Shown: in pieces, positions 979-47,526 of the stretch | Layout of the letters: every line of letters starts with the position of its first letter | Position numbering within the stretch: position 1 is the stretch's first letter | IMG/VR virus record: IMGVR_UViG_3300010262_000228 | Direction: 5' to 3' (one strand) | DNA length: 64,000 nt | Source of the DNA: an uncultured virus (IMG/VR IMGVR_UViG_3300010262_000228) | Lineage: Duplodnaviria > Heunggongvirae > Uroviricota > Caudoviricetes | Made by a program: the position numbers and the translations under genes | Notes under the pieces: model-generated | The model's input: only the letters and a program-made list of their open reading frames with translations | What the model was told of the DNA's origin: nothing | The model's database searches: none

Positions 979-1562
979 ATCGAAAACAGAAAAAGGAGCT
1001 GCGGCAGCATCAGACTACCCGGCAGCTCATGGGCATTGAACAACTCACCGAACACGGCATCAAAACTGCCAGAGGTGAGCTGATCTTTTACCTCATTAAG
1101 CCGGATAACCTGTCCATCCAGTCAGACGAGGGTGTGCGTAGTCGAGTTCTTGCGCTCACGAACCTGCTATGCAGCACTGATGACTTGTACCTGTTGGCGC
1201 TGGACTCCCGCGAGTCCTTTCAGCAAAACAAGAACTACTACCGCGACAGGCTGGACAAGGAGGAAATACCCGCTCTACGGAAACTGCTCCAACAGGATAT
1301 GGCATACCTTGATGCAATCCAAGCGAGCACCGCTTCCTCTCGGGAGTTTGCCTTAGTCCATTTCATAGAAAAAACCGCTAATGCCGATCCCGGTTATGCA
1401 GTGCGGCTGGAAAAGTCTATCCGTGACTTTGGCTTCTATGTCCGAAAGGCCACGGAGCAGGACATTATGCGCTTGCTGGCCGTCTATTATCAGCAGGACA
1501 TCACCACGGAGGTTTTTGAACACTACGATGGGGAAAGGTGGTTTGCCAGAAATGGAATATAA
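975..1562 (+). CDS. Conjugation protein (TrsD-like) preceding VirB4
   Basis: ATGA overlap with previous gene; operon position. Confidence 0.6.
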   Translation: MNRKQKKELRQHQTTRQLMGIEQLTEHGIKTARGELIFYLIKPDNLSIQSDEGVRSRVLALTNLLCSTDDLYLLALDSRESFQQNKNYYRDRLDKEEIPALRKLLQQDMAYLDAIQASTASSREFALVHFIEKTANADPGYAVRLEKSIRDFGFYVRKATEQDIMRLLAVYYQQDITTEVFEHYDGERWFARNGI

Positions 1563-1797
1563 GAACATCAGGATCTCATGCATTCCCGACTGCGGGGAAA
1601 ACGAGGGCGGTTACTTCTGCGAAGTGTATGCTCAGGACTGCGATGACCGCATGGACTCCTTCTGCATCCACCCCTTCGAGCTGGAGGAAAACCCCGACCC
1701 AGAATACTGGATGCGGGAGTATGCGGAGAACACCTATGAAGCCTATGTGCGGGAGGGGCTTGTGCAGCCTGCTCCCATGCAGAGCCAGACCATGTGA
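1552..1797 (+). CDS. Small acidic hypothetical protein (81 aa), ends PMQSQTM
   Basis: AAAGGTGG RBS before ATG 1552; fills the gap before VirB4. Confidence 0.6.
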   Translation: MEYKNIRISCIPDCGENEGGYFCEVYAQDCDDRMDSFCIHPFELEENPDPEYWMREYAENTYEAYVREGLVQPAPMQSQTM

Positions 1798-1809
1798 GGA
1801 GGTGCGAAA

Positions 1810-3666
1810 ATGGCAACGAAAAAAGTGCAGAAGAAAAAAGGAAAGCCTGCGGCGAAACCGGCCCCGGCCGCACCGCCCAAAGACTTCCTCGACATGATCG
1901 CCCCCGCCGCCGTCCGGTTCAACACAGATCACTATATCCTTGGCGGGACATACCGGTGCGTCCTTGCGCTGAAAAGCTATCCGGTCACTACCGAAGAACT
2001 GGCAATCCTGCGGCACCTGGGTGAGAAAAGCGGTGTGACATTGCGAATCTATAATCATCGGGTCACCCCAGCCGAGCAAAACGCTATCATCCACAATGCC
2101 GCCAACAAAAACCGTATGGAGCGGAGCAACACCAATAACCTCCAGCAAAGCGTAACTGCCGAAGCAAAGCTGCAGGATGTGGTCACGCTGATCAATTCCA
2201 CAAACCGCAATCAGGAGCCGCTCATCCACTGCGCAGTATTTCTCGAGCTGTCTGCCAGCGACACGGAGAGTCTGCGGACACTACGTGATGAGGTGATGGC
2301 AGAGCTGACCCGTGCAAAGATTAGCGCTGACCGCATCCTGCTCCGCCAGCGGGAAGGCTTCGGTGCTGTGAATCCGGCAGGACACAACACCTTCGGCGCG
2401 CTCTATGAGCGAGTTCTGCCTGCCTCGTCTGTTGCCAACCTTTACCCTTTTAACTATTCCGGCAAGACAGATCCTCATGGATTCTATATCGGAAAGGACA
2501 GGTACGGGTCCAACATCATCGTGGATCTGGAACGTCGCAGTGATGACAAGACCACTGGCAGCGTCCTTGTGCTTGGAAATAGTGGTCAAGGCAAAAGTTA
2601 TCTGCAAAAGCTCCTTCTCTGCAATGTGCTGGAGAGCGGCAAAAATGTGCTGTGCTTCGATACCGAGCATGAACTGAAGGATCTCTGCACCAGTCTGGGC
2701 GGGTGCTTCACCGATATGATGAGCGGCCAATACATCATTAACCCGCTTGAACCGAAACTGTGGAGCATCGATTCTCTGATGGAGGCGAAAGAGGATTTTG
2801 AAGCCCCGCCAGCTTTCCGGGAACAATCAAAACTTTCCCAGCATATTTCTTTCCTGAAAGATTTCTTCAAATCGTACAAGGATTTTTCCGACCGGCACAT
2901 CGACACAATCGAACTGATGCTGGAACGGCTCTACAACAAATGGAGTCTGAATGACCGAACTAACTTCTCTGTTCTGAATCCCAACGACTATCCCATCATG
3001 GCCGACCTGTACGATGTGATCGAGGAAGCATATCAGAACTATGACAGAGAAGAAAATCCTCTGTATCCCCGTGAACTTCTACAAGAGGTGCTACTGGGAC
3101 TACACTCCATGTGCCGTGGGGCTGACAGCAAGTTTTTCAATGGCCATACCAATATTACTTCTCACCGTTTCCTCGTGTTCGGTGTCCGCGATCTGGTGCA
3201 GACCGGTGGAAGTCTCTGCAACGCCATGCTGTTCAACATCCTGTCCTACTTCAGCAACAAGCTGCTGGTGGAGGGCAACACCGTGGCCGGACTGGACGAG
3301 CTTCATGTGTGGATCGCCAACCAGACGGCAATCCAGTACATTCGAAATGTCCTTAAGCGTGCGAGAAAGCGAGACTCAAGCCTGATCCTTGCTTCACAGA
3401 ATCTTGAGGACTTCACGCTCCCTGGCATTGCCGAGCTGACTCGCCCACTGTTCTCTATTCCCACCCACCAGTTCATCTTCAATTGCGGAAATGTCGACAG
3501 GAGGTTCTACATGGACAACCTCCAGTTGGAGAAATCCGAATACGATCTCATTCAACATTCGGAGCGCGGAATCTGTCTTTATAAATGCGGAAACGAGCGG
3601 TACCATCTGGATGTCCGTGCGCCGGAATATAAGGAGTCCCTGTTTGGCAAGGCAGGAGGAAAATAA
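1810..3666 (+). CDS. virB4: VirB4-family T4SS ATPase
   Basis: Walker A GNSGQGKS, Walker B LDELH, RARKR..ILASQN motif. Confidence 0.9.
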   Translation: MATKKVQKKKGKPAAKPAPAAPPKDFLDMIAPAAVRFNTDHYILGGTYRCVLALKSYPVTTEELAILRHLGEKSGVTLRIYNHRVTPAEQNAIIHNAANKNRMERSNTNNLQQSVTAEAKLQDVVTLINSTNRNQEPLIHCAVFLELSASDTESLRTLRDEVMAELTRAKISADRILLRQREGFGAVNPAGHNTFGALYERVLPASSVANLYPFNYSGKTDPHGFYIGKDRYGSNIIVDLERRSDDKTTGSVLVLGNSGQGKSYLQKLLLCNVLESGKNVLCFDTEHELKDLCTSLGGCFTDMMSGQYIINPLEPKLWSIDSLMEAKEDFEAPPAFREQSKLSQHISFLKDFFKSYKDFSDRHIDTIELMLERLYNKWSLNDRTNFSVLNPNDYPIMADLYDVIEEAYQNYDREENPLYPRELLQEVLLGLHSMCRGADSKFFNGHTNITSHRFLVFGVRDLVQTGGSLCNAMLFNILSYFSNKLLVEGNTVAGLDELHVWIANQTAIQYIRNVLKRARKRDSSLILASQNLEDFTLPGIAELTRPLFSIPTHQFIFNCGNVDRRFYMDNLQLEKSEYDLIQHSERGICLYKCGNERYHLDVRAPEYKESLFGKAGGK

Positions 3667-3668
3667 TT

Positions 3669-4865
3669 ATGGCTGTTGATCCTGTAACCATTGCTAAGAT
3701 CGCCGCCGCTGCGTTATCCGATGAGAGAGTTCGGAAAGGCATTGGTTGGATGCTGGTGGCGATTTTGGCACCACTCATCCTGCTGATAGCGGTGATATGC
3801 TCCTTCGCCTCCGGTGGTGCAGATCACAACAACGCAACTGTGGAGGCGTGCTTTTATGGAACCAGCTTCTCAGCGGAAGTCCCGGCTGAGTTTCGCAGCT
3901 ATGTCTCGGAGATGCAGTCGGCTTTTTCCTCTCTGGATTCGGCGGTTGCGTCTGTTAACAGTCAGATGGAAGATGGAAGTCTTGATCCAGTCAGGGTCAA
4001 GGCGATTTTTTATGCCCTCTGCTTTGGCGCGGATATCCCGGCCACCGCAACGGCAAACAATGTGGTCGGGTGTTACTACACCACCGAGACCCGCACCAGG
4101 ATAGTGCAGGTGGAACAGGAGGACGGAACGATCACAGAGGAGGAAGAAGAATATACGGTCGCGGTGCCTGTCAGTTTGGAGAGCGCCTATGCAAACCTCG
4201 CTGCCCTGTTGGGGTATGCGGTTACCGAAGAGCACAGAAGCAACGCCGACCATATCTACACCATGATTGCAGGTGCGGTCGGCGGCGACGGGAGCTACAG
4301 CGGCGAGTATGAGCGAGGGACAACCTACAGCGTGGCGCTGGACATCTCCGGGTTCACGGACCCGGCCACCAAGAACGCAGCCGACCTCGTGGCCTATGCC
4401 ATCCACGCATGGGAATCCGGCTGGGGATATGTCTGGGGCACATACGGCAACGTGCTGACCGATTCTCTCTTCAACTACAAGCTGGAGCAGTACCCAGACG
4501 GCGTTGGCAACCATGAGGAGTTCATCGAAGCCAACTGGCTCGGCGGCAGGACCACTGACTGCGTGGGACTGATCAAAGGCTATGGCTGGCTCGACCCGGA
4601 TACGCTGACCATCGGATACGCCACCAACGGAATGCCTGACTACGGTGCCAACCAGATGTATCGAAGTGCATCCGTGTCCGGCACCATCGACACCATCCCA
4701 GAGATCCCCGGACTGGCTGTGTGGTGCGACGGGCACATCGGTGTCTACATCGGCAACGGCGAGGTCATCGAGGCCATGGGCACCAAGTACGGCGTAGTCA
4801 AAACCAAGCTGGCAGACCGCAACTGGACGCACTGGCTGGAGATCGAATACATCAACTACGACTAA
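3669..4865 (+). CDS. Conjugation cell-wall hydrolase with C-terminal NlpC/P60-like domain
   Basis: N-terminal TM; DCVGLIKGY and GHIGVYIGNGEVIEA catalytic Cys/His motifs. Confidence 0.8.
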   Translation: MAVDPVTIAKIAAAALSDERVRKGIGWMLVAILAPLILLIAVICSFASGGADHNNATVEACFYGTSFSAEVPAEFRSYVSEMQSAFSSLDSAVASVNSQMEDGSLDPVRVKAIFYALCFGADIPATATANNVVGCYYTTETRTRIVQVEQEDGTITEEEEEYTVAVPVSLESAYANLAALLGYAVTEEHRSNADHIYTMIAGAVGGDGSYSGEYERGTTYSVALDISGFTDPATKNAADLVAYAIHAWESGWGYVWGTYGNVLTDSLFNYKLEQYPDGVGNHEEFIEANWLGGRTTDCVGLIKGYGWLDPDTLTIGYATNGMPDYGANQMYRSASVSGTIDTIPEIPGLAVWCDGHIGVYIGNGEVIEAMGTKYGVVKTKLADRNWTHWLEIEYINYD

Positions 4866-4883
4866 TGCAGAAAGGGTAATGAC

Positions 4884-5174
4884 ATGGCAAACATTGAAAT
4901 AACCCTCTCCTTCGATGAGAACAAACACCGCGCGCTGGAGTTTGCTCTGAGCAAGGAGAACACAACTGTGCGGGAGCGTCTGGAGCAGGCGCTCTCGCAG
5001 CTTTATGAGCAGGCCGTGCCGGAGCCGGTGCGTGAGTATGTGGAGAGCTTCAATCCGCCTCCCGCAAAATCCAAGCGTCCGGTCAGGTCTGCAAACAAAC
5101 CACAGCCGAAGGTTGAGCCGCCGCAGGCGGCACCCTCTGCTATCGCGTCTAAAAATGAGGAGGTGCAACAATGA
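4884..5174 (+). CDS. DUF6103-like small ICE protein
   Basis: ITLSFDENKHRALEFAL...LYEQAVPEPVREYV pattern; in tra operon. Confidence 0.6.
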   Translation: MANIEITLSFDENKHRALEFALSKENTTVRERLEQALSQLYEQAVPEPVREYVESFNPPPAKSKRPVRSANKPQPKVEPPQAAPSAIASKNEEVQQ

Positions 5175-6214
5175 CGCAGCGAGAGATTACGCTCTGGGTA
5201 GACGAGCGTTGGTGCAAAGCACTGGAAAAACATCTGCTGGACGGTACAGTCGCTGAGAAGCTTGAGGAACACATCGATGAGTTGGTAAACCGGCTACCGG
5301 AAAATGTGTACGAGCGGATTAGCAGTGAGATCTGGCAGGAGCGAGAACAAGCAAAGATAGAAGCGGAAGCCGCGCGCCGTTTCGCAGTCCTCCATGTGAC
5401 CGAGGCCGGAAACTCTACCTACCTTGTGGCCGAAGAAAATTTGGATATGCTTCATGTGGCAGACCGACTGCGAAGATACACACGGAAGCCACCTGAAAAC
5501 TCACCCTCGCGTCTTACCGGAATGTTCTCCAGGGGAGAAAAAATATCCCGCGAACAGTTCGATGTCTATGTGCAGGAGTGGCTGGAGAACACCGGACGTG
5601 TGGTCGGCGCATTCGACATCGACCTTGACCGGGGACGCTTCGATGCCCTTCACATCATGGATGGATGGCAGTGCTTCCGAACTCAGGATGTCAGCACGGC
5701 AGTCTACTTCGCAATGAAGAAAAGTGTTGCATCTCAGGATGAGCGGTGGCGAGTATTCCTGGACCGACTGGATGGGAAGCAGCTCACGCATGAAATGGAG
5801 CCGGGGTACATCTCTGGAAGTCAGACTCTCCGCGCAGAGGACGTCTCCTTCGCGGAGGACATCGTGCAGAATGAAAACCTGCTGGAGTTCTACATAGAGG
5901 TCTGCTTCGATGCAGACAAAGTGTTCGGCACTCATGTCTGCACCACCGAGAATGATGACTACCTGAATGTGTACGCCAACTACGATATGGAGAAACAGCA
6001 AGTCGCTGACACGCTGGAGGTGTATCTGGTGCGCGGCAGCGGCGGTGAGCAGGACTACAAGTACCGTCTCAATGATGAGGAGAAGGAACTCCTGCTCCCC
6101 AAGATGGAGGAATACTGTCAACAGCATTGGGGCCAGAGTCTAGACGAGTGCTGTCAGCAGTACCTATCCGAGCAACAGCAGGAGCAGCAGAGTGGCGGGA
6201 TGACATTCGGATGA
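5171..6214 (+). CDS. Hypothetical ICE protein, ends QEQQSGGMTFG
   Basis: 347 aa, GAGGAGG RBS, overlaps previous stop. Confidence 0.75.
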   Translation: MTQREITLWVDERWCKALEKHLLDGTVAEKLEEHIDELVNRLPENVYERISSEIWQEREQAKIEAEAARRFAVLHVTEAGNSTYLVAEENLDMLHVADRLRRYTRKPPENSPSRLTGMFSRGEKISREQFDVYVQEWLENTGRVVGAFDIDLDRGRFDALHIMDGWQCFRTQDVSTAVYFAMKKSVASQDERWRVFLDRLDGKQLTHEMEPGYISGSQTLRAEDVSFAEDIVQNENLLEFYIEVCFDADKVFGTHVCTTENDDYLNVYANYDMEKQQVADTLEVYLVRGSGGEQDYKYRLNDEEKELLLPKMEEYCQQHWGQSLDECCQQYLSEQQQEQQSGGMTFG

Positions 6215-7114: not shown

Positions 7115-7128
7115 GGAAGTGATCACAG

Positions 7129-8613
7129 ATGCCTCGCATCATCATGAAGTGTCCATTCATACGAGGCGGTTCGCAGAAAGCTGTATCACACCTGCGGCAT
7201 TACATCAATTATGTAGCGACCCGTAGTGGCGTTGAGAAAATACAAATTGATAAGCAAGATCTTCCCGCAACCAAGAAACAAAAAGAGTTTGTCAGTCGGA
7301 TCATCAAGGACTTCCCTCTCAGTAAAGGTATGTTTGAGTACGAGGATTTCCTAGCAAAGCAAACTCGCGGCAACGCATCAGAGTTCATCTCCCGTGCGGT
7401 GGAGGACAACTATGACAAGGTTGCTAAACTTGAAAACTACATGCAGTACATCGCACTGCGCCCTGGTGCAGAAAAGATAGAAACACATGGCTTGTTCACT
7501 GCATCAGATGAACGCGTTGTGCTGTCGCAGATCGCAGACATAATCGCCCATCACAAAGGTAACGTGTGGCTGCCCATCATATCGTTGAGACGTGAAGATG
7601 CGCAGCGATTAGGGTATGACAATGTGGAGCAGTGGCAATCGCTCCTACGCTCATGTGCTATGGAGGTAGCCCAGCAGATGCGAATACCCTCGGAGCAGTT
7701 CCGGTGGTATGCTGCATTCCACAACGAGTCATCACATCCTCACATTCATATGGTCTGCTACAGTGAAGATGGGAAAAGTGGTTTTCTCACAACCAAGGGT
7801 ATTGAGAACATCAAGTCCACGCTGGCTAAGGAAATCTTCCGTCAGGAGCTGACGGAGATATATGCGGAACAGACTATCCGACGAAATCGGCTGACGGTGG
7901 ATGCGGAGCAACGCCTGAAGGAACTCATAGAGCAGATGCAGAGTGGCGAAATGGAAAGTAGCCGTATCGAGCAGCTCATGGAAGAACTGTCTCTGCGCCT
8001 GCAAAATCTTTCGGGAAAGAAGCAATATGGGTATCTGAAAGCACCACTGAAATCTCTTGTGGATGAGATTGTAGACGAACTCGCCAAAGACGAGCGGATT
8101 AAGAAAGCCTACGAACTGTGGTATGAGATGCGGGAAGAAGTGCTGCGAACCTATGGTGATAACCTTCCAGAACGACTGCCACTCTCTCAGCAGAAGGAAC
8201 TAAAGCGGATCAAGAATGCGGTCATTGAAGAAGCCATGCGTCTTGGTACGCAGGGGAGCGACCACCAACAGGAGGACACCGATTCCGCAAAAGAAGCAAC
8301 GGAGTCACAACAGATTCCACAGGAAGATGTACCTATGCCTGAAGGCTCACAGCAAAGTGAGAGTAACAAAGCACATCAGGCAACGACATCTTCCACGAGT
8401 GTCCAAAGAAGCAAACCATGGATACCACGGTCTGTACAATGTGCAACAAGGCTCCTACGGCATATGAGTAAGATCTTTGAAGATAATCCGCCTCCCAGAC
8501 AATACAACACTAGATTCACTGACCGGAAGTTACTACAAAAAATTCAGGAACAGAAGATTGCCCACGGTCATAAAGCGGATGACCACGAGGATCAAAGCAT
8601 GTCTATGCAATGA
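7129..8613 (+). CDS. HUH relaxase (MobL/MobP3-type)
   Basis: YINYVATRSGVE, YMQYIALRPG, WLPIISLRREDA, AAFHNESSHPHIH. Confidence 0.85.
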   Translation: MPRIIMKCPFIRGGSQKAVSHLRHYINYVATRSGVEKIQIDKQDLPATKKQKEFVSRIIKDFPLSKGMFEYEDFLAKQTRGNASEFISRAVEDNYDKVAKLENYMQYIALRPGAEKIETHGLFTASDERVVLSQIADIIAHHKGNVWLPIISLRREDAQRLGYDNVEQWQSLLRSCAMEVAQQMRIPSEQFRWYAAFHNESSHPHIHMVCYSEDGKSGFLTTKGIENIKSTLAKEIFRQELTEIYAEQTIRRNRLTVDAEQRLKELIEQMQSGEMESSRIEQLMEELSLRLQNLSGKKQYGYLKAPLKSLVDEIVDELAKDERIKKAYELWYEMREEVLRTYGDNLPERLPLSQQKELKRIKNAVIEEAMRLGTQGSDHQQEDTDSAKEATESQQIPQEDVPMPEGSQQSESNKAHQATTSSTSVQRSKPWIPRSVQCATRLLRHMSKIFEDNPPPRQYNTRFTDRKLLQKIQEQKIAHGHKADDHEDQSMSMQ

Positions 8614-8654
8614 GCTACAGACTCAGGTTAAATTTCCAAACAGGAGGTGGCACC

Positions 8655-10133
8655 ATGCCGTATATCCATTTTACAGATGAACAGAAACAGCGCGCCGCAT
8701 CTGTTGACCTCGTAGAGTTCCTGCGGCGGCAGGGTGAAAAGCTCATCCGCTCTGGCCCTGAGTATCGTCTGGCCAGTGATCACAGCATCACGGTACGCGG
8801 CAGTGAATGGTACGATCATGCAGCCGAGCATGGCGGTGGCCCCGTGTCCTTTGTCAGAAGCTATTATGGTCTCACATACCCGGAGGCAGTCACTCGACTG
8901 CTAGATGGAGAACAAGGGACAGTCATCGAGCGCGGCACCAAGCAAATTGAGCCGGAGAAAAAAGAGTTCGCACTGCCGCCTGCTCACACCGATATGCGCA
9001 GGGTGTATGCCTACCTGCTACAGCGAAGGCTCATTGACCGGGAAGTCCTGTCGGCCTTCGCCCGTGCCGGTCTAATCTACGAGAGCTGTGAAAAAGCCAA
9101 GGATGGAATGAAAGAGTATCACAATGCCGTGTTCGTTGGAAAAGACGAACACGGCATTGCCCGTCATGCACACAAACGAAGTCTGAACAGCGGCGGCAAC
9201 TCTCTGCGAATCAATGTGGAAGGCTGCGATTCACGTTGCAGCTTCCACCACGCCGGGACCAGTGACCGGCTATATGTATTTGAGGCACCCATCGATCTGC
9301 TATCCTTCATCACCCTCTATCCGAAGAACTGGCAGGAGCATAGCTATGTGGCGCTCTGCGGCACATCCAGACACGCCATGCTATGGATGCTGGAGCAGAA
9401 CGCAAGGCTGAACAAGATCGTCCTCTGCATGGATCATGACGAAACAGGCATCGAGGTCAATGGCCGACTTGCGGAAACCTTGCGCGATGCCGGATACAGT
9501 GAAGTGTCCACTCTCCAACCTCGACACAAGGACTGGAACGAGGATCTCAAGGCCAGACATGGCGTAGAGGCGCAGGCTCCGGTGGAGCATCCGCAACTCC
9601 AAATAGCACCAGAGGTCTGTGGACGGATTGGGAAATACAGCGAAAATGCCAGACCGGACATCATCCGGCAGGCTCTTCCGTGGCTGTTGGAGAAGTACCG
9701 CGCCCACATACACTGGGGCCGCTTCGACCATGCTATGACTTGCATGGAGCAGATGTCCGCTCTATCCCTCGCCGCCTATGGCCGGGAGCTACGCCAGCTT
9801 GGTGCCCCAGTCAGCCTCGATGAACTGACAGAAACTCTCCGCAGGCATATTCTGCCCCATCAAAATCGCGGTGTGATCAAAAACCGTGATACGGAAATCG
9901 CTATGGAACTCCAGAGCGTGCTGGCGAAGGGCGATGCCGAGGGCATTCGTACCGAAACAGATAAACGGCAGCTTGCTGACGCTTGGTTTGGACTCGCGGT
10001 GTCCTGTGCCAAGATCCCGGTCAAATATGCAGCGGAGCAACTCAAGCAATATCAAAAGCAGATGGAAGAAGCGAAGCTGTCACCGGAACAAGCAGAGCCA
10101 CCGTCCATGGCGGTGGCTCTGCAAATGATGTAA
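8655..10133 (+). CDS. DUF3991 + Toprim primase-like ICE protein
   Basis: FEAPIDLLS and LCMDHD Toprim motifs, KDWNEDL; GGAGG RBS before ATG 8655. Confidence 0.8.
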   Translation: MPYIHFTDEQKQRAASVDLVEFLRRQGEKLIRSGPEYRLASDHSITVRGSEWYDHAAEHGGGPVSFVRSYYGLTYPEAVTRLLDGEQGTVIERGTKQIEPEKKEFALPPAHTDMRRVYAYLLQRRLIDREVLSAFARAGLIYESCEKAKDGMKEYHNAVFVGKDEHGIARHAHKRSLNSGGNSLRINVEGCDSRCSFHHAGTSDRLYVFEAPIDLLSFITLYPKNWQEHSYVALCGTSRHAMLWMLEQNARLNKIVLCMDHDETGIEVNGRLAETLRDAGYSEVSTLQPRHKDWNEDLKARHGVEAQAPVEHPQLQIAPEVCGRIGKYSENARPDIIRQALPWLLEKYRAHIHWGRFDHAMTCMEQMSALSLAAYGRELRQLGAPVSLDELTETLRRHILPHQNRGVIKNRDTEIAMELQSVLAKGDAEGIRTETDKRQLADAWFGLAVSCAKIPVKYAAEQLKQYQKQMEEAKLSPEQAEPPSMAVALQMM

Positions 10134-10142
10134 CGAAATGAG

Positions 10143-36418: not shown

Positions 36419-36437
36419 CCCCAAGGAGGATTATGTA

Positions 36438-38695: not shown

Positions 38696-39145
38696 ATGCG
38701 AACAATCAAGGCGATTACATACCACATCAAGAACTGCGGCGACGAGATTAAACCCGCCTACGAGCAGATCGGACTCTACCCACACAAGCAGCGGGTGGAG
38801 TACAAGAGTCCGAACCTGCTTGGGAGCATCGTCAATGCTGATTGCAGCCTGCTCTACCTTTTATGGCGTCAGTTGGTGGACTCCTACGAGGAACATTGCT
38901 TTGATGAAGCGACCTGCCATGAACGGTTTAGCACGGAAGCTCAGTTCGAGAGCTGGGCACGACAGACCTCGTTTCATGATGAAGATGTCACTTGGGAAGT
39001 TGCCATTCATCATATCTCGGGCGAAATCGAAAAGTTTATCTGCTGTGGCACCGCTCCTGTCCCTGTGATTTTAGAGGAGGTCACTCAGGTACTGAAGGCA
39101 CGATATCCGCAACTTGATGAATTACAGGAGGAAGATCACAGATGA
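38696..39145 (+). CDS. Hypothetical protein
   Basis: 149 aa, AAGGA RBS, coupled to next gene. Confidence 0.65.
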   Translation: MRTIKAITYHIKNCGDEIKPAYEQIGLYPHKQRVEYKSPNLLGSIVNADCSLLYLLWRQLVDSYEEHCFDEATCHERFSTEAQFESWARQTSFHDEDVTWEVAIHHISGEIEKFICCGTAPVPVILEEVTQVLKARYPQLDELQEEDHR

Positions 39146-39999
39146 GAGAAAAGAACGCTGAAGCAATCGAAAGCTACTACGAGGAACTGGCTCTCCGCTT
39201 GCGGCTGGAGGGATTTACCGTTACCCGGCCTGATGACAGAAAACTTCATGTGGCACTCGGCGATACGCCCATTTGCGATGTTCATGAAGATGGCATCCGA
39301 TACAGCCGCGGGGATATTGCTTCCAGCCTCCAAGAAGAAGCTAAAGACCATGTCCTGAACCTTTCCCGGCAGGTACGAGAATACACGACTGCATTTCAGG
39401 CAGCACCCTTCTTAAAGGCCGAAAGTCTGGAGGAAGGCTATAAGGTGCTGATCGACTACCATGACACCGTTTTGGCTGCGAAGCCGAGCCAATATGGTAT
39501 GCAGTTCGTTACTTGGGATTGGGATTTCCATCACCGGGGCCTGAATCATGGCCACTACCACAACACCGATTATGAAAACGCCAAGCGTGACTTTGCCGCT
39601 CGTGCAGGCTTAGTGGAACGTTATCCTGCGTTCAACCAAAAGCAGATGGTTGAAATCTATCGCTGTTGTGAAGATACGCTCTGCGACACCTATGAGATGA
39701 CAGATGAACAGCGGAATATCATCCGGTCCGTTCAGGAAACCATTCGAGATAAGTATCCCAACATTCTCGACCTTATCCGAGAGCATGACAACATCTATGC
39801 GGAAGCAATGTTCTCAGCCCCCAAAGATCCAGAGCTGGAGGAAGAAACGGAAATCGACATTATGTGGGATGACCTGAAACCGGCCACACAGAAGCGGATC
39901 TTAAACATGCTTGGCGAGAATGGCAACTATGATATTTACCCAATCGCCACCATCCAGTCCGAGCAGGCCATGGGGCAAACCATGGAGCAGACCATGTAA
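39142..39999 (+). CDS. Hypothetical ICE protein, ends MGQTMEQTM
   Basis: VLAA....GMQFVTW......G..HGHY...Y..AK.DFA.RAGL pattern. Confidence 0.75.
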   Translation: MREKNAEAIESYYEELALRLRLEGFTVTRPDDRKLHVALGDTPICDVHEDGIRYSRGDIASSLQEEAKDHVLNLSRQVREYTTAFQAAPFLKAESLEEGYKVLIDYHDTVLAAKPSQYGMQFVTWDWDFHHRGLNHGHYHNTDYENAKRDFAARAGLVERYPAFNQKQMVEIYRCCEDTLCDTYEMTDEQRNIIRSVQETIRDKYPNILDLIREHDNIYAEAMFSAPKDPELEEETEIDIMWDDLKPATQKRILNMLGENGNYDIYPIATIQSEQAMGQTMEQTM

Positions 40000-40016
40000 G
40001 GAGGGTGCGAAATTCC

Positions 40017-40373
40017 ATGAGGATTCTTAAAGTGGAGCCAGGAGAAGCACCCTACGAAAAAGAGATGGACAACAGCTTGGATGCCATCCAGAAGGAAGTC
40101 GGAGGCGGTTTGTTCGAGCCTATCTATCTGGACAGAGACATCGTCCTCTGTTGCAACGAGGAGGGCAAACTTAACGGAATGGCTATGAATCGTCGACTTG
40201 GACAGGACATTATTTGTGGTCCGTTTTTCCTCGTCGGTGAGGATCGCCACGGAAACTTCCGTTCTCTGACCGATGAAGAGATCGCAACATTCAGCCAGCG
40301 ATTTGCTGAACCAGAACAATTCCAAGAGCATGAACCTGATGCCGAACCTCGATGGATGATCATTTCCATGTGA
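40017..40373 (+). CDS. DUF3846 domain protein
   Basis: LKVEPG..P...L.A.Q..VGG..E...CNEEGKL.G...NR...I.GPF. Confidence 0.8.
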   Translation: MRILKVEPGEAPYEKEMDNSLDAIQKEVGGGLFEPIYLDRDIVLCCNEEGKLNGMAMNRRLGQDIICGPFFLVGEDRHGNFRSLTDEEIATFSQRFAEPEQFQEHEPDAEPRWMIISM

Positions 40374-40413
40374 GAGATTCGGCATTTTACTTTTACAGAA
40401 GGAGAAATAGAAA

Positions 40414-40854
40414 ATGTCAAGATACTTCCTGCAAGATACTCCTCTCGCTGCGTGGGAGCGGGAGATGATGGCGGTCCCAGGCTTTGGCCGTCGAAGAGTC
40501 AAACAAACTGACGAGGAATCCTCGGCAGTTACTCCCGTGTATGAATTGGACTTCCCGTTCAATGAATATCACTTCCCTGTTGGAGATGGATGCTTTGTCG
40601 GCACTCTGGTCATGAAGCGCTGGAACGGGCGAAATGGTCTCAATTGTTTCTTTGATGGAGCCGATGGAACGCCGTACAAGCTCTGCGTGTGGAACAGCTA
40701 TGAGGATGGACGAGCCTACCGACCCGACTATTCCGACTTGGACATTTCCACCATGGCATTGGGCACTACACTGCGGGTTAAGTTTAGAGCCACCCGCTCG
40801 GGTAAAACCAAGTGGCTGGAAGCCGAGATTCTGGAGGTAAGCGCATGTATGTAA
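40414..40854 (+). CDS. Hypothetical protein
   Basis: AAGGAG RBS; 146 aa. Confidence 0.65.
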   Translation: MSRYFLQDTPLAAWEREMMAVPGFGRRRVKQTDEESSAVTPVYELDFPFNEYHFPVGDGCFVGTLVMKRWNGRNGLNCFFDGADGTPYKLCVWNSYEDGRAYRPDYSDLDISTMALGTTLRVKFRATRSGKTKWLEAEILEVSACM

Positions 40855-42032
40855 TAAAAGCAACACTCAGCAATTGTCAGCATCCAGAATACGGACAAGT
40901 GACCGTCCCTTTCCCCATCCCCAATGACGAATATGACAGTATCATCGAGATGCTTCGGGAGTTGGACATTGGTGACCCCAAGGCAAGAGATTGCCAAGTA
41001 ACTGATATCGACTCCCACTACAATATCCTGAAACAATTCGAAGGAAACGAAATCAACTTGGACGAGATGGACTACCTCGCCAAGCGGTTGGACAGCTTCT
41101 GTGTCGGAGAAGATGCGCAGTTTCAGGGAATGGCAGCCAAGCTAAATCTCACGGATATGACCGATTACATCAACCTGACATTCTGTTGTCAGCGAGCTAC
41201 CGTTATCACCGACTTCTCTGACTTGGAGCAAATTGGCAAGGACCACTTTATGAATATCAACGGCGGCAGTTGCAAAGTTGAGGATCTGGAGAATTTGGAC
41301 GGTGTCGAAACAGCCTACCTGCTGATTACCGAAACACCTGCCACGATTACCCCCTTTGGTGTCGTCTATGATAACGGAATGCGTCTGGAGCAGATCTATG
41401 ACGGGCAGCACTTCCCGGAATACTGGTACGGAGATACCAATCTGTCGGTCATCATGACTCCAGCAAATGACAAGAATGCGCCGGAAACCTGCCTGCTATT
41501 CCCTATGCCGGACAGCAAGGTGGAGCGTGTTATGAATCGGGCAGACATCCATTGTCCGGAGGATATGGCTCTCCGCTTCTCCAGCAGTGAGATGCCTGAC
41601 GAAGTGGATGCTTCACTCATCATAGAGCATGAAAGCCTGCGAGACATCAATCGCATGGCTCGTGCAGTCAAGGATCTAAGTAAGAGCGACCAGGATAAAC
41701 TTGCCGCCGTCATTTTATGGGCCAAACCAAATGGTGCCAGACAGGTAGCGAACTTGGCCGAGAGTCTGGAGTTTTTCGAGTTTGCACCAAATGTGAGAAA
41801 CGCAGAGGAATACGGCAAGTACATGATCCAGGAGTCCGGCCACTTTGAGTTCGATGAAAACCTTGAACAATACTATAACTACAGGGTCTTCGGTCAGAAT
41901 CAGTTAGACAGCGAAAGCGGTATGTTCACGCATCGCGGGTATGTATCCTACCACGGAGAAATGTCCTTGGAGGAACTGATGGTAGAAGGTCCCCCTGAAC
42001 AGGAGTTTGGTATGGGAGGGATGTCATTTTGA
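40845..42032 (+). CDS. Acidic ArdA-like anti-restriction protein, ends EQEFGMGGMSF
   Basis: Very D/E rich; EEYGKYMI..SG...ENLEQYYNY..FG...GY resembles the ArdA C-terminal domain. Confidence 0.55.
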   Translation: MYVIKATLSNCQHPEYGQVTVPFPIPNDEYDSIIEMLRELDIGDPKARDCQVTDIDSHYNILKQFEGNEINLDEMDYLAKRLDSFCVGEDAQFQGMAAKLNLTDMTDYINLTFCCQRATVITDFSDLEQIGKDHFMNINGGSCKVEDLENLDGVETAYLLITETPATITPFGVVYDNGMRLEQIYDGQHFPEYWYGDTNLSVIMTPANDKNAPETCLLFPMPDSKVERVMNRADIHCPEDMALRFSSSEMPDEVDASLIIEHESLRDINRMARAVKDLSKSDQDKLAAVILWAKPNGARQVANLAESLEFFEFAPNVRNAEEYGKYMIQESGHFEFDENLEQYYNYRVFGQNQLDSESGMFTHRGYVSYHGEMSLEELMVEGPPEQEFGMGGMSF

Positions 42033-42775
42033 GAACACCGACCAACCTCCCCAAAATCAAACGGATTGCCCATACATTACTGAATACCGATATCAAGCTG
42101 ACCAACTATTCTCCGGTGATTGTAAAACATCCCTTCACCAACAGCGGAATCAGCGCGGTGCGTGGTGAAAACGGAAACTTGGTAATGGTTGACCTGGTTA
42201 ACAAGCCAGAAGACCTTGCCGCTTGGAGAAAGCAGGTCGGCGGGCTGATTGACAGTTCTAAATCCGCCTATGAAGTCTATCTCATGGTGGACAAGACCTA
42301 CTCTCTTGCTTTTATCAAGTTCGCAGAGCCGTTTCTATCAGATCAGGATCTGGGACAGATTTTATCAAGTGCCTGGATTGCAAATGAAGCGCCAAGCAGT
42401 GACCCTAACATAAACAAGCGCAATCTCGTTTCGCTGTTCAGATCCATTCCTCATGAATACCTCATGGACGCAGAGGAACTTCAGCAGCTTGAAGAACTGG
42501 AAGATCCCGTTACCATCTACCGTGGTGTCCGCTCAGAAAAGCAGAAGCACATCAAAAATCTCTCCTGGACACTGGATAGAGAAAAGGCAGAATGGTTTGC
42601 ACATCGTTTCAGCAGAGAGGGAACCGTGTACGAAGCACAAATTGAAAAGAAACATATTCTGGCTCTGTTTAATGGTCGTGGTGAATCAGAGGTTGTTGTA
42701 GATCCCAAATATCTTCAAAATCTTACCGTGGCCATGGAGCAGGAGCAGGGGTTTCAAATGGGAGGGATGACATGA
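42029..42775 (+). CDS. Putative R-S-E clade ADP-ribosyltransferase-fold protein, ends EQEQGFQMGGMT
   Basis: IYRG ... LSWT....A.WFA ... GESEVVV. Confidence 0.6.
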   Translation: MRTPTNLPKIKRIAHTLLNTDIKLTNYSPVIVKHPFTNSGISAVRGENGNLVMVDLVNKPEDLAAWRKQVGGLIDSSKSAYEVYLMVDKTYSLAFIKFAEPFLSDQDLGQILSSAWIANEAPSSDPNINKRNLVSLFRSIPHEYLMDAEELQQLEELEDPVTIYRGVRSEKQKHIKNLSWTLDREKAEWFAHRFSREGTVYEAQIEKKHILALFNGRGESEVVVDPKYLQNLTVAMEQEQGFQMGGMT

Positions 42776-43905
42776 CCATGATGCTGCACTTAGTACGAGG
42801 GAATAATCATGAGGGAGCTAACCTCGTCCTGCCTGCGACACCAGCCGATGTGGGCCAAGCCTATGCGAGACTGGATGCGGTGACTCGGTATCCCGGCGAA
42901 GTAAAAATCGACAGCGTAACCTGCTCTGTGAGAAATCTTGAGAACTACTTAAAAGGCATGGATTTGGATAGACCTACGGTCATGCTGCGTCTCAATCAGT
43001 TGGCTGAGAAAGTTGAGCAAATGACCAGCTTGGAAAAGAAAATCTTCTCCGGTGCTTTGGATGGTGAGTCTATCAATGGTCTGGATGATATCCTCCATGT
43101 TGCAAGCCACCTCCACGATTATGTTTTGATTGAGGATGTAGGTTCCGACCGCAGCCTGGGCGAATACATGATTGAAACAGGGCTGTTCGATGATTGCCCG
43201 AAAGAGCTCCGTCACTACCTCGATGCTGTTGCCATCGGCGCTGAAGCCTACAGCAACTGCGGCGGTGCCTATACCCTTGATGGGTATGTGCTCCGCAAGG
43301 AAAACGCCACATTCCGCCTTGCAGAAAACCAGGACATGGGTGGTGGGCATATGGTCTTTAAGCTGTTGCTTCGCTCCCAGGAAACATCCATCAATCTGAT
43401 TCTCCCGGCCACGGAGGAACAGTTGGAGCGGGTTTTGCAAAAACTCCATATTGATGAGTTCGCACAGGCAAAAGTGGAAATCATCGATGCAATCCCTTAC
43501 GCCAAGGAACTCATTCCTGACTGTTGCATAAGCATAGAGGAAGCAAACGACCTTGCCCTGGGAATTGAAGAGATGCAACAGAGCGATGGGCAACTGCTCA
43601 AATTCTTCTCTGCTCTGGCAGTTGAGCAACCAGAAACCTTCAGCGAGGCATATCAGATTGCCCTGAATCTGGATGACTACGAACGTGTCCCGGCAGATAT
43701 GGACGAATATGGTCGCATGGTTCTGCGCCGCTCCGGTATGGATGACGAGCTGATGGACATGATCGACGGCTACATGGACTTCGCTGGACTCGGGGAGTTC
43801 TATGTAGAAGAAAATGTTGTACGAACGACTGACTTCGGTATGGTCCGGCGCTGTAGTGCCCCCTTCGAGCCGGAGGAACAGTCTTTACAGATGGGAGGAA
43901 TGTAA
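42772..43905 (+). CDS. Acidic ArdA-like protein with two internal repeats, ends EEQSLQMGGM
   Basis: L.LPAT twice; SLGEYMI..G....PKELRHYLD..AIG and DEYGR...YMDFAGLG. Confidence 0.55.
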   Translation: MTMMLHLVRGNNHEGANLVLPATPADVGQAYARLDAVTRYPGEVKIDSVTCSVRNLENYLKGMDLDRPTVMLRLNQLAEKVEQMTSLEKKIFSGALDGESINGLDDILHVASHLHDYVLIEDVGSDRSLGEYMIETGLFDDCPKELRHYLDAVAIGAEAYSNCGGAYTLDGYVLRKENATFRLAENQDMGGGHMVFKLLLRSQETSINLILPATEEQLERVLQKLHIDEFAQAKVEIIDAIPYAKELIPDCCISIEEANDLALGIEEMQQSDGQLLKFFSALAVEQPETFSEAYQIALNLDDYERVPADMDEYGRMVLRRSGMDDELMDMIDGYMDFAGLGEFYVEENVVRTTDFGMVRRCSAPFEPEEQSLQMGGM

Positions 43906-43908
43906 CCG

Positions 43909-44022
43909 ATGAAGAAAACGATGCTTATTATCACCGCAGCAGCTGCGGCCATTGGTGCCGCTGTTGCCGGTTATTTCTGCTTTGCACATCCGCAGCGGTA
44001 TGTAGGGAGGCATCTGAAGTGA
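43909..44022 (+). CDS. 37-aa hydrophobic peptide (not in ORF track)
   Basis: MKKTMLIITAAAAAIGAAVAGYFCFAHPQRYVGRHLK; GGAGG RBS; stop overlaps next GTG. Confidence 0.6.
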   Translation: MKKTMLIITAAAAAIGAAVAGYFCFAHPQRYVGRHLK

Positions 44023-44688: not shown

Positions 44689-44776
44689 ATAGAATTCTTT
44701 CCGCTATTGTCGATGGCTATTTCATACAAGCTGTGGTATGTTGTGTGCTTACAAACAGGGAAAGGAGGTGTACGCA

Positions 44777-44923
44777 ATGTCGGCAATCCCTAAGAAAATC
44801 TTAGCTGTTCAACTTCGCCCCGCTTCAGTTGATGAGGCGGGGCTATTCTATGCCCTCACGCCTGGGTGTAGCCGACACTGGTGGCCGAACGGCCTGAAGT
44901 TGAACAGCCAGAAGAACAAATGA
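44777..44923 (+). pseudogene. Short ORF, possibly an internally deleted remnant of a longer ICE gene
   Basis: Strong AAAGGAGG RBS but only about 48 codons; LRPAS.DEAGLFY and WWP motifs look like fragments of a larger ICE protein (recollection, unverified). Confidence 0.35.
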
Positions 44924-44939
44924 TAGGAGGAATCTACAA

Positions 44940-45923
44940 ATGAGCAAGCTACCACAGGGATGGCTGGACTTCCTACGGGAACAGCACCCCATTGGAAGCA
45001 GAGTCCAGGTCAAAGAAATGGCTGATTCGCAAAGCACCATTCAACCCGGAGCGACAGGTAAGCTGCTGGAGATCGAAGACGATGGCGCGTTCATTGTTGG
45101 CTGGGATCGAGGCGGCGTATCGGCTGTCACCATCGGCAAGGATCGCTTCTCTCTTCTGCAGCCGGAGCCCACAACGCTGAAACTGTATATGCCCTTGACC
45201 GCCGACCTCTATGCCTACGACGAATGGGGCGACCTGGAGCCTGAAAGCGAGGAACTGAACGGAACCGGCTTGTTACCCTACGAAGCCCAGATTGTATCCG
45301 CATTGGTAAAGTACCGCGATCCTGCAGAAGCAGAGCGTGGCATTATGAATTGGTACGATACGCAGGACAGCGTGAATGCCAAAGTCCGTTCCGCTGTCTT
45401 CACTGCTGAGATTCGCGACCACGCACTCTGGGGCGTGACCGAATGCCGGGTCATTGGTGACCTGACCCCGGACGAGTTGAGTACGCTGAAGGACTACATC
45501 ACCGGCCAAGCCGCAGACGGCTGGGGCGAAGGCTTCGAACAGCGTGAACTGCAAAACGAAGACGGTGAACTCTATGTACATCTCTGGAGCTTCGGCGATT
45601 GGGAAATCAAAACGGAGCAAGAGCAATTCGGTCCGAAGGTAGCCGAAGGACTGCCTGAAACCTGTTACTCTGTCCTGCACAGCACCGGCGAGCTGATTAT
45701 TCTCAAACGCGGTGAGTCTGGGTACTACAGGGTAGACTTCAGCTCCCCTGACAAAGAGGAGAACATGGAGCTGGCGGATCACTACAACGAAAAGCTGGGT
45801 GTCACATCCGAGCAGCGTCAGGCCATGGAAGTTGGGAGCATGGTCGGATGGAATGTACCTGGTGCCGATCCGCAGAACTATGTTTGCGAAGAGCCGCAGA
45901 TGGGAGGGATGACACTTGGCTGA
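44940..45923 (+). CDS. DUF4314-containing ICE protein, ends EEPQMGGMTLG
   Basis: LR..HP.GSRV....M.D....I.PG.TG.....D.G...V.WD.G; GQAADGWGEGFEQ; GSM.GW.VPGADP. Confidence 0.75.
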   Translation: MSKLPQGWLDFLREQHPIGSRVQVKEMADSQSTIQPGATGKLLEIEDDGAFIVGWDRGGVSAVTIGKDRFSLLQPEPTTLKLYMPLTADLYAYDEWGDLEPESEELNGTGLLPYEAQIVSALVKYRDPAEAERGIMNWYDTQDSVNAKVRSAVFTAEIRDHALWGVTECRVIGDLTPDELSTLKDYITGQAADGWGEGFEQRELQNEDGELYVHLWSFGDWEIKTEQEQFGPKVAEGLPETCYSVLHSTGELIILKRGESGYYRVDFSSPDKEENMELADHYNEKLGVTSEQRQAMEVGSMVGWNVPGADPQNYVCEEPQMGGMTLG

Positions 45924-47526
45924 GATTTTCAAGGTCGAACTCATTTCAGAGGAGGATCTGTGCTGTGAACTTTCGCTTCCCGCAGGTGACCACCGCCTGT
46001 TCGATGCCTATGAACAGCTTCGACAGCCTCTGGCCGAACCCATCCGATGGGACATCTTAGGATGCCGGGGCTATGAGTATCTCGTCCCCTATATCCAGGA
46101 AGAGAATCTTCTTGCTGTAAATGAGCTTGCTCGGCGGCTATCGGAGATGAGCGACACCCAACGCTCTGCCTTTGAAGGCATCACAAAAATGGAGCTTGAA
46201 CTGCGGCGCGGCCCCTTCGGTGTGGAGGATCTCCTTCACTATGCGCAGAGCGTTGACCTCTGCCATGTAGTGCAGGAAGCAACAGATGATGCCTCTCTCG
46301 GGCGTTTCTACGCAGAAAATGGCTTCATTCCAGAAGTGGAAGACCTGTCCGATGATGTATTCGAATTGCTGGACTTCGCCAAACTCGGCAGAAAGAGTCG
46401 TGGAGAAGAAAAAGGCGTCTTCACGCACAATGGCTATGTTGTGCTTCACGATCCAATCGACCGCACCCCTGTCCCTGTCCAAGATCAGCCGCAGAAGCCC
46501 GTATATGTGTTCCTGCTGAAGTTGGAGCCGTACCCCTTTGAAAATGAGAGCACTACGGCGGTTGAGCTGAAGTTGCCTGCGAGTGAGGAGCAGCTCCAGC
46601 AGGCTGTCGAGAAACTTGCAGTGGGAAACTGGAGCGAGGGACTCTATACCATCGAGGATAGTATAATCCAAGATGTCTTGGATGAAAGCGATACCTTGGT
46701 TGGGCTAAGAGCACTGAACACTCTTGCAAACGAGATCTCAGCTCTCTCCCAAGACGAACTCCCCAAATACAAAGCGCTGTTGGAAGTGACACAGTGTTGC
46801 AGCGTAGAGGGGGCTCTTGAGTATATTAGAGCACTTGACCAGTACAAGATGGACAGCAATATCCGCAGTTATGAGGAACTTGCCCGTGAAGATGTCTGCG
46901 GCATTGTCGAAGCTAGTACCGCAGATATGCTAATCAGGCACTTGGATCTGACTGCTTATGGGCGAGATCTGGCAACACAAGAACATGGCTATCTCACTGC
47001 CTATGGATACCTCGCGCGCAATGACATGGAGCCAATCCATACCGAAATGCAAGAGTTCAAGGTTTATGCGATGGATGGTCATGGTGCAACTGGTGGTTTG
47101 CCAGAGGGTTATGTCGTCGCTAGAAATCAGGCGGGAGCAGAACGGTTTCTGAAAGAGCGTGGGGTAGACTTGGCGAAAGTCTGTATTGTCCCCGAACACC
47201 CTGTAGAAAGAGAGGATAGCGAAATGAATTGGTTTGATAAAGGCCGTCAGATGGCCGAAGTGAACAAGAAGTTATATCCGCCCGGCACAAGGATCGAACT
47301 TGTCTCTATGGGGAACGATCCTCGTCCCATCGAGCCCGGCACCAGAGGAACTGTCGACCTCGTCGATGATATGGGAACCCTGCATTGCACCTTCGACAAC
47401 GGGCGCAAACTGGGTGTCTGCCTCGAGGAAGACAGAATCCGTGTCATTCGAGGCCAGGAAGTCGCCCAGCAGGAACAGGCCATTGAGCCCCAACATGGTC
47501 CTGAGATGAGCGGCATGTCTATGTAA
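45916..47526 (+). CDS. ArdA-like repeats fused to C-terminal DUF4314, ends GPEMSGMSM
   Basis: SLGRFY..NG...LDFAKLGR; LDLTAYGRD; YPPGTRIEL..M.NDPRPIEPGTRGTV..VDD.G.LH. Confidence 0.7.
   Translation: MAEIFKVELISEEDLCCELSLPAGDHRLFDAYEQLRQPLAEPIRWDILGCRGYEYLVPYIQEENLLAVNELARRLSEMSDTQRSAFEGITKMELELRRGPFGVEDLLHYAQSVDLCHVVQEATDDASLGRFYAENGFIPEVEDLSDDVFELLDFAKLGRKSRGEEKGVFTHNGYVVLHDPIDRTPVPVQDQPQKPVYVFLLKLEPYPFENESTTAVELKLPASEEQLQQAVEKLAVGNWSEGLYTIEDSIIQDVLDESDTLVGLRALNTLANEISALSQDELPKYKALLEVTQCCSVEGALEYIRALDQYKMDSNIRSYEELAREDVCGIVEASTADMLIRHLDLTAYGRDLATQEHGYLTAYGYLARNDMEPIHTEMQEFKVYAMDGHGATGGLPEGYVVARNQAGAERFLKERGVDLAKVCIVPEHPVEREDSEMNWFDKGRQMAEVNKKLYPPGTRIELVSMGNDPRPIEPGTRGTVDLVDDMGTLHCTFDNGRKLGVCLEEDRIRVIRGQEVAQQEQAIEPQHGPEMSGMSM

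Follow-up and report, generated by a model that had tools for sequence, protein, structure and literature searches.

Why should ten proteins of unrelated families, encoded by a single mobile element, end in the same manner? This question is raised by a stretch of 64,000 nucleotides from IMG/VR record IMGVR_UViG_3300010262_000228, referred to below, at its full length, as the window. The window contains an integrative conjugative element (ICE) of a kind found in Oscillospiraceae and other gut Clostridia. In a preliminary description of this DNA, ten proteins of the ICE were said to share a methionine-rich C-terminal tail. Translation of the window places all ten tails immediately before the stop codons reported for them, and the make-up ascribed to the tail holds for each carrier: a Gln/Glu/Pro-rich stretch is followed by two or three methionines within the last nine residues. 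The sharing of this tail goes beyond chance.

The ten carriers are unrelated soluble proteins, all encoded on the + strand. Four of them lie in the conjugation region, namely a small protein of 81 aa counted from the ATG at 1552 (most likely 1552..1797, end ...PAPMQSQTM), a 347-aa protein (5171..6214, end ...QEQQSGGMTFG, at greater length ...QQEQQSGGMTFG), the relaxase (7129..8613, Pfam MobL, NCBIfam MobP3, end ...EDQSMSMQ, at greater length ...GHKADDHEDQSMSMQ), and a primase-like DUF3991 + Toprim protein (8610..10133, end ...EPPSMAVALQMM). The other six are a 285-aa protein (39142..39999, end ...EQAMGQTMEQTM), an ArdA-like protein (40812..42032, end ...PEQEFGMGGMSF), a 248-aa protein (42029..42775, end ...EQEQGFQMGGMT), an ArdA + DUF6329 protein (42772..43905, end ...EPEEQSLQMGGM), a DUF4314 protein (44940..45923, end ...EEPQMGGMTLG), and an ArdA + DUF4314 protein (45916..47526, end ...EPQHGPEMSGMSM). 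A DUF3846 protein (40005..40373, + strand, end ...AEPRWMIISM), absent from the earlier list, is a borderline eleventh carrier, and two of its three homologues have Met as the last residue. The types of protein represented among the carriers include relaxase, primase-like, ArdA-like, YodL, SpoVG-like, and DUF4314 proteins. With regard to the earlier suggestion of a payload comprising ArdA-like, ADP-ribosyltransferase (ART)-like, and primase proteins, the tail is indeed borne by the relaxase, the primase-like Toprim protein, and three ArdA-like proteins. The ART-like component of that suggestion comes down to a weak Atlas lead for 42029-42775 (DRAT, an ADP-ribosyltransferase; 0.83, a score level that is often due to chance). 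Apart from that lead, the Atlas look-ups made returned only neighbours annotated as hypothetical.

With regard to its form, the tail comprises a linker of 10-15 residues, rich in Gln, Glu, Pro, and Ser, partly helical, and depleted in Lys, Arg, and bulky hydrophobic residues, after which the final 2-7 residues of the chain contain Met-x-Met, Gln-x-Met, or Met-x-x-Met. Relative to background proteins, the last 14 residues contain 3.7 times as much Gln and 1.2 times as much Glu, and Lys and Arg each fall to 0.4 times the background level. In the AlphaFold (AF2) model of the protein encoded at 5171-6214 (26 sequences, mean pLDDT 82), the E/Q linker closes the helix 324-341 and the last six residues have a pLDDT below 50. 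A Foldseek search of this model against the PDB gave no match at E<=0.001.

The tail is absent from the proteins for which its absence had been reported. These are the VirB4-like T4SS (type IV secretion system) ATPase (1810..3666, + strand, end ...FGKAGGK), which serves as a negative control within the ICE, the VirD4-type coupling protein (CD1115-like, 10143..12161, + strand), which has a tail of its own of another kind and is the candidate reader, the protein encoded at 3669-4865, the three serine recombinases (50579-54629), and all 22 cargo proteins.

In order to express the tail as a frequency, two rules were used: at least two Met in the last 8 residues (rule A), and a Met in the last 4 residues together with at least four E/Q/P in the last 14 (rule B). 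As both rules were composed after the window had been seen, the fair test is that made in other genomes, and we applied them to two independent host genomes carrying related ICEs (G001 and G002), which also supplied the background; for G002, the latter consisted of 16 evenly spaced 20-kb stretches with 294 genes. In the window, rule A is satisfied by 11/29 ICE proteins and by none of the 36 others (Fisher p 3.9e-5), and rule B by 10/29 against 1/36. In G002, the corresponding figures are 10/42 ICE proteins against 3/294 background proteins for rule A (Fisher p 7e-8) and 14/42 against 5/294 for rule B (Fisher p 2e-10), and in G001 they are 9/40 against 8/244 and 9/40 against 2/244. Both rules jointly are passed by 9/42 ICE proteins in G002 and by 6/40 in G001, whereas no background protein passes them in either genome (0/294 and 0/244, pooled 0/538). 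The Met content of the last 8 residues in G002 is 9.2% for ICE proteins and 2.0% for the background, whereas over whole proteins it is nearly equal (2.7% vs 2.6%). The tail is thus commoner on ICE proteins than on the other proteins of the window and than on the background proteins of G002 and G001, as the preliminary description would have it. One further protein of the window, the UmuC-like protein with its stop at 35813 (end ...VTMPGLMYQ), meets one of the rules but was rejected as a carrier, as 0/4 of its homologues do so.

The tail is also retained among orthologues. We compared 47 related loci, the most distant of which are at about 40% identity, and counted distinct sequences. A Met in the last 4 residues is found in 35/35 members of the 5171-6214 family, in 23/26 relaxases, in 19/24 Toprim proteins, and in 2/5 homologues of the protein encoded at 1552-1797. 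The same count is 0/27 for VirB4, 0/31 for the 3669-4865 protein, 0/36 for the DUF6103 protein, 0/21 for the HTH protein, 1/30 for 6662-7114, 1/22 for 960-1562, and 3/24 for VirD4; among the 120 VirD4 homologues listed, it is 1/120. Relatives of the DUF4314 protein encoded at 44940-45923 end in ...TTMGGMTLG, ...ETGGMTLE, and ...PQMGGMTLE.

The 5171-6214 family is the most informative. Among the 120 homologues listed of 653 matches (62-99% identity), 118/120 have a Met in the last 4 residues, 85/120 have a terminal Met, and 58/120 end in M-x-M. The globular part of these proteins closes with ...CCxxYLxEQ, and the tail past this point varies freely with the terminal Met kept, as in ...PEMQM, ...SPQM, ...GPAM, ...GGMVFS, and ...TMC. 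The resulting profile is Pro in 48% at -5, Glu in 45% at -4, Met in 54% at -3, Gln in 58% at -2, and Met in 77% at -1. As the sequence of the tail turns over while its terminal Met stays, the conserved item, judged from these comparisons, is a property of the tail and not a stretch of DNA.

For the relaxase, the conservation is restricted to a lineage. In the wider relaxase family (150 representatives, 40-65% identity), a Met in the last 4 residues is present in 48/150, and either rule is passed by 25/150, so the tail was rejected as a general trait of MobL/MobP3 relaxases. The earlier statement that the relaxase carries the tail thus stands for the related loci and not for the family at large. 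The general feature of the wider family is a C-terminal box, ...KKxAxGH[KA]xDDHE, a few residues from the end. It is also found as ...(D/E)KKxAxG[HQIL][KR]xDDHE and is present in most relaxases of the family, which are 290 to 1281 aa long; this box may itself constitute a terminal element common to the family.

What, then, is the tail for? We consider it about an even chance that it is a recruitment or translocation tag read by a receptor encoded by the element, most likely the VirD4 coupling protein. The tail would act as an address label at the free C-terminus, directing the relaxase, the primase-like protein, and a set of proteins for anti-restriction and establishment to the type IV secretion channel. 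From there, the labelled proteins would pass into the recipient along with the DNA, or they would at least gather at the channel. Three traits of a type IV C-terminal signal are found in the tail, which is terminal on unrelated proteins, is present on the relaxase (in the lineage of this ICE only), and is absent from machine and housekeeping proteins. The carriers match proteins that are known or proposed to be transferred by conjugation, and this was counted in favour of a tag. The substrate tag put forward in the preliminary description is retained in part: the tail is an ICE-specific peptide feature, always terminal, conserved among orthologues, and kept off the T4SS ATPases, the recombinases, and the cargo; the proposal needs correcting with regard to a Gly-Gly core discussed below, the scope among relaxases, and the ART-like protein.

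To our knowledge, no consensus signal is known for Gram-positive conjugation, so the tail has to be set beside signals of other systems. Coupling proteins and FtsK/SpoIIIE-like secretion ATPases belong to the same broad superfamily. In the type VII system ESX-1, the EsxB signal LxxxMxF, consisting of a C-terminal helix and a short loose end, binds to EccCb1 at the third of its FtsK/SpoIIIE-like ATPase domains; neither the Met at -3 nor the hydrophobic residue at the very end can be dispensed with, the signal is immediately preceded by a stretch rich in E/Q, and the 7-residue tag is portable, as it moves a foreign protein according to work cited in that article (PMC6954902). The ICE tail resembles this signal in its position at the extreme C-terminus and, in the 5171-6214 family, in a predicted helix followed by a loose end and in the preference for Met at -3 and -1. 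It differs in the secretion system and the phylum, in a last residue that is usually Met, and in being carried by many unrelated folds. This is resemblance, not membership.

In the Dot/Icm system of Legionella, RalF has a hydrophobic residue in its extreme C-terminus, and a Glu-rich E-block (EExxE), located within about 20 residues of the end, has been proposed to bind basic patches of DotM (PMC7251119). Similarly, the ICE tails place a hydrophobic end after an acidic or polar stretch and sit on unrelated proteins; the Dot/Icm signals, carried by dozens of unrelated proteins, are read by a type IV coupling-protein complex. In contrast, Gln outweighs Glu in the ICE tail and Met is its hallmark, whereas Dot/Icm is a type IVB effector system of a Gram-negative pathogen with DotM, IcmSW, and LvgA adaptors. 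These two articles (PMC6954902, PMC7251119), in which secretion ATPases or coupling complexes recognise signals at the C-terminus, provide a precedent for a tag read by VirD4.

ESX-1 and Dot/Icm offer the closest working analogues, and the signals of conjugative systems are more distant. The F- and R1-type relaxase signals TSA and TSB are internal folded domains of about 200 residues and are relaxase-specific (PMC12624023); the ICE tail is like them in its proposed role of bringing the relaxase to VirD4 and unlike them in being terminal and present also on non-relaxases. The Agrobacterium-type signal is an Arg-rich C-terminal tag, on proteins co-transferred with DNA, that acts in a VirD4-dependent manner. 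Positively charged C-terminal signals are described for the substrates of the Agrobacterium VirB/VirD4 system and for conjugative substrates (PMC11288057). The ICE tails are of opposite charge, with Lys and Arg depleted 2.5-fold in the last 14 residues, and this depletion does not fit the Agrobacterium type, in which the last ~20 residues are net-positive and Arg-rich. F-type T4SSs pass many plasmid and host proteins, with signals that are C-terminal or internal and follow no single consensus (PMC8406263, PMC11288057), and the understanding of how coupling proteins choose their substrates is incomplete, model plasmids included (PMC12624023). The closest precedent in gene content is that of Iyer et al., who proposed that accessory and polyvalent proteins of Tn1549-like Firmicutes elements are delivered via the T4SS (PMC5512222). 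The repertoire presented there is the same as that of the ICE (ArdA, DUF3846, YodL, Toprim primases, and LPD domains), and the main text of that article, as searched, describes no terminal tag. In the freely available article texts searched, no description of a Met-ending tail was found, in agreement with the earlier remark that the motif seemed undescribed.

Does the coupling protein itself point to such a role? The 120 VirD4 homologues listed include 18 that are longer than 690 aa. The long VirD4s inspected (six scanned with Pfam, and P0323) have N-terminal extensions, mostly joined right before the membrane helix. In five of them (P0306, P0311, P0323, P0324, P0370), the extension contains an accessory domain: DUF4314 in two, and LPD28, a Dam methylase, and a module of the 5171-6214 family in the others. 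The last of these is found in P0323 and corresponds to the family's N-terminal module, with 35% identity and E 3e-32. These fusions hint, as a Rosetta-stone lead from gene architecture, that proteins with the fused domains work at the coupling protein. The VirD4 homologues listed end mostly in sequences containing Arg or Lys (...RRPKIRR, ...RKTVFRP), and we speculate that such ends would suit an acidic/Gln linker.

The same data would also be covered by a docking tag for another partner, such as an ICE-encoded hub or chaperone (a relaxosome component or an SSB-like hub), which would assemble a complex in the donor with no export. A tag of this kind would equally be ICE-specific, terminal, conserved, and of a flavour particular to its element, and the binding of short, acidic-then-hydrophobic C-terminal tails to hubs is a known principle, as exemplified by SSB tails and by TraD-TraM. 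Nevertheless, our analysis yielded no candidate hub, most of the carriers are proteins of anti-restriction and establishment, which have their targets in the recipient, and the accessory fusions to the N-terminus of VirD4 point to the coupling protein. We therefore regard docking in the donor as unlikely, although it is the alternative that survives best.

Could the tail have no function at all? On this view, disordered ends would have been inherited as modules of the mosaic accessory genes were shuffled, and their Met, Gln, and Glu would persist through drift, or else through short homologies at the junctions that promote recombination. The accessory proteins are indeed mosaics of ArdA, DUF4314, DUF6329, and DUF3846, some junctions are alike in DNA (for example CAGACCATGTRAGGAGG at 1797 and 39999), and the tails are short and variable. 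However, a Met is kept in the last 4 residues by 118/120 listed homologues of the 5171-6214 protein while the remainder of the tail changes, and the tail is also present on the relaxase, the Toprim protein, and T4SS-module proteins, outside the mosaic region. Furthermore, in a 473-aa homologue of the 5171-6214 protein with a duplicated C-terminal module (P0025), the tail is found at the true end only, having been lost at the internal junction. An absence of function is accordingly somewhat harder to sustain than docking, and we rate it as rather improbable.

Other elements of the same genomes bear tails of other flavours. A different conjugative element of the genome G002 (L081, G002:C1:1951001-1971000, genes 1318-13588, - strand) encodes a MobL-like relaxase, a DUF3991 protein, and a 2060-aa polyvalent LPD11/GNAT/methylase/SNF2 protein. 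Its tails consist of an acidic linker followed by [MLF]-E-[LVI] in 5/13 called genes (such as ...EVEDDMEL, ...DLEDDFEL, and ...ESEQGMEV), with several more near-variants. Tn1549-like elements (L086, L087, L088, and L089, from G001 and G005), recognised by CD1107-like, topoisomerase III, NlpC/P60, and VirB4 proteins, have tails in which D-[ML]-E-[LV] comes after a linker rich in Lys; in L087, 4/15 genes carry them. The carriers in these elements are ArdA-DUF3846-LPD18, ArdC-N/DUF3849, and MutS_I-like proteins. In the three ArdA-containing polyvalent proteins among them, the end is preceded, at a distance of about 20-45 residues, by Pfam DUF4316 (43 positions); no mention of DUF4316 was found in the literature searched. 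Ends of the form [MLFIV]-E-[LVI] are found in 5/13 genes of L081 and 4/15 of L087, versus 5/538 in the background and 0/42 in the Met-tail ICE of G002, and no gene checked in L081 or the Tn1549-like elements passes both rule A and rule B. As the Glu of these ends is coded by GAA as well as GAG, and as several of the tails have no adjoining gene, the other flavours are also features of the peptide.

Three flavours thus coexist in the same cells, one per element. A host-wide reader would predict a single flavour, and this distribution argues for a reader encoded by the element rather than for a host-wide one such as a protease. It bears directly on the possibility of a degron, in which a non-polar C-terminal end would be read by ClpXP or Lon so that the carriers would be short-lived in the donor. 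Non-polar C-terminal ends are classic degrons, and the tail is exposed and of low confidence in the AF2 model; yet the flavours, each confined to one element, and the absence of any background protein passing both rules make a degron very unlikely. Based on the same distribution, a family-specific C-terminal code can tentatively be proposed for elements of gut Clostridia, consisting of a linker and hydrophobic-x-hydrophobic-COOH, in which each coupling protein would read its own flavour only. The candidate examples would be Gln/Glu followed by Met-x-Met, an acidic linker followed by Met/Leu/Phe-Glu-Leu/Val/Ile, and, in Tn1549-like elements, a Lys-rich linker followed by Asp-Met/Leu-Glu-Leu/Val after DUF4316. 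We consider such a code possible, though less than probable.

The Gly-Gly core that makes several of the tails so striking has a different origin. In translational coupling, the Shine-Dalgarno (SD) sequence of a gene can lie within the 3' end of the gene that precedes it. The window's four M-G-G-M tails are each coded ATG GGA GGR ATG, and, measured from the last letter of the stop codon, the next start falls between 8 nt upstream and 3 nt downstream. The GGAGG lies at 42015..42019 in the tail codons of 40812-42032 (9 nt before the TTG start at 42029), at 42761..42765 in those of 42029-42775 (6 nt before the ATG at 42772), at 43894..43898 in those of 42772-43905 (10 nt before the ATG at 43909), and at 45903..45907 in those of 44940-45923 (8 nt before the TTG at 45916), all on the + strand. 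The third of these precedes a 37-aa ORF with one hydrophobic helix (43909..44022, + strand), which starts 3 nt past the stop of 42772-43905 and is translationally coupled to it. When all loci are taken together, Gly-Gly occurs along with Met in 52 distinct tails; the Gly-Gly is coded GGAGG in 41/52, and 37 of these 41 have the start of an ORF (at least 50 aa) within -14 to +20 nt of the stop. The Gly-Gly of M-G-G-M is therefore the SD of the coupled downstream gene and not a peptide motif: in overlapping genes, it stands between methionines because its codons double as the GGAGG of the next gene. The appearance of M-G-G-M is thus composite, a Met-ending peptide tail with an embedded ribosome-binding site.

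The remainder of the tail is left unexplained by an embedded SD, as are its methionines, its linker, and the tails with no following gene. Among the 27 genes with a tail in the window and G002, GGAGG is missing from the tail in 19 (for example ...EMQM, ...QQTM, ...TMSM, ...EMTM, and ...MSGMSM), and for many of these the next start is 25-450 nt away. For this reason, the interpretation of the whole motif as an artefact of ribosome binding was rejected. At 5171-6214, the Gly-Gly is coded GGC GGG, which is not an SD, and the next real gene lies 447 nt downstream. The end of VirB4 (...AGGK/R) also embeds GGAGG, with no Met around it. The tail of 45916-47526 contains no SD, the next gene being 76 nt on, and for 1552-1797 and 39142-39999 the SD of the next gene is located after the stop. 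The junctions at 1786-1822 and 39988-40022 consist of nearly identical DNA, CAG ACC ATG TRA GGAGG(G)TGCGAAA, comprising a Q-T-M end, a stop, an SD, and a spacer, and may represent either a scar left by recombination or a coupling cassette that has been conserved. The preliminary description had allowed that the motif might be conserved only where it overlaps a downstream ribosome-binding site; this proved to be so for the Gly-Gly, and the Met tail persists where no gene adjoins. A pure by-product of translational coupling, in which the start codon and ribosome-binding site belonging to the following gene would alone shape the 3' ends, thus explains the Gly-Gly (37 of the GGAGG tails with a nearby start, and all four M-G-G-M tails of the window) but neither the GGAGG-free tails, nor that kept by the 5171-6214 family across its downstream gap, nor the Met-free end of VirB4, nor the flanking ATG codons, which are neither part of the SD nor usable starts, and is for the Met tail largely refuted and the least probable of all the readings. 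For motif hunting, this is a caution that part of a striking peptide motif can be the ribosome-binding site of the next gene.

Several points weigh against a tag read by VirD4. The two rules owe their wording to the window, the genes were called with our own codon-model caller, and the limits of the ICEs in G001 and G002 were set by homology and by eye. Several soluble proteins of the ICE have no tail, namely the DUF6103 protein, 6662-7114, 960-1562, and the sigma-like factor, and most relaxases of the wider family have no Met near the end. The Gly-Gly core is a signal at the DNA level. Met has a single codon, and synonymous variation cannot separate conservation of the peptide from conservation of the DNA at the Met positions, so position and context have to carry the argument. 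ArdA-type proteins need not be transferred in order to act, as they can be expressed early in the recipient. The VirD4 fusions are metagenome gene calls, most of them on one or a few contigs, and may be real or read-throughs of gene calling. Finally, the differences in flavour between elements could reflect ancestry and not the specificity of a reader.

The remainder of the ICE provides the context of the carriers. The conjugation region (960-12427, + strand) comprises the VirB4-like ATPase, the MobL/MobP3 relaxase, the DUF3991-Toprim protein, the CD1115-like VirD4, and a small HTH protein; inverted repeats, as a possible transfer origin, were sought in the gap 6200-6680, and no pairs were found there. 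The cargo region (12567-34516, mostly - strand) contains the 22 proteins that have no Met tail, including a Ser/Thr kinase, a PP2C phosphatase, an FHA/zinc-ribbon protein, a ClpB-like AAA ATPase, three radical-SAM proteins, a MORN-repeat protein, a DUF4236 protein, a WYL regulator, and an MBL-fold hydrolase, the last being a superfamily match that does not indicate beta-lactam resistance. From its predicted content, the cargo looks like a signalling or defence-type operon. A LexA-like S24 repressor (33596-34516) stands opposite the UmuC-like polymerase (34572-35813), which opens the accessory region (34572-48390). The latter also encodes the sigma-like factor, the DUF3846 protein, three ArdA-like proteins, and two DUF4314 proteins, and is followed by the three serine recombinases. 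A fourth serine recombinase (676 aa) and, after it, a 235-aa protein ending in ...EDEQQAPAPSFSGY are located at 60460-63208, where a second mobile element, with yet another type of end, may begin.

If the tail is indeed a tag shared by the relaxase and a dozen accessory proteins, the question of how a coupling protein chooses its substrates would become directly testable, and the protein payload of ICEs from uncultured gut Clostridia would be predictable from sequence. It would also reveal which anti-defence proteins reach the recipient before gene expression. If, in addition, the code is specific to each element, co-resident elements could each load their own anti-restriction and establishment payload, and this payload would be readable from the sequence of the element.

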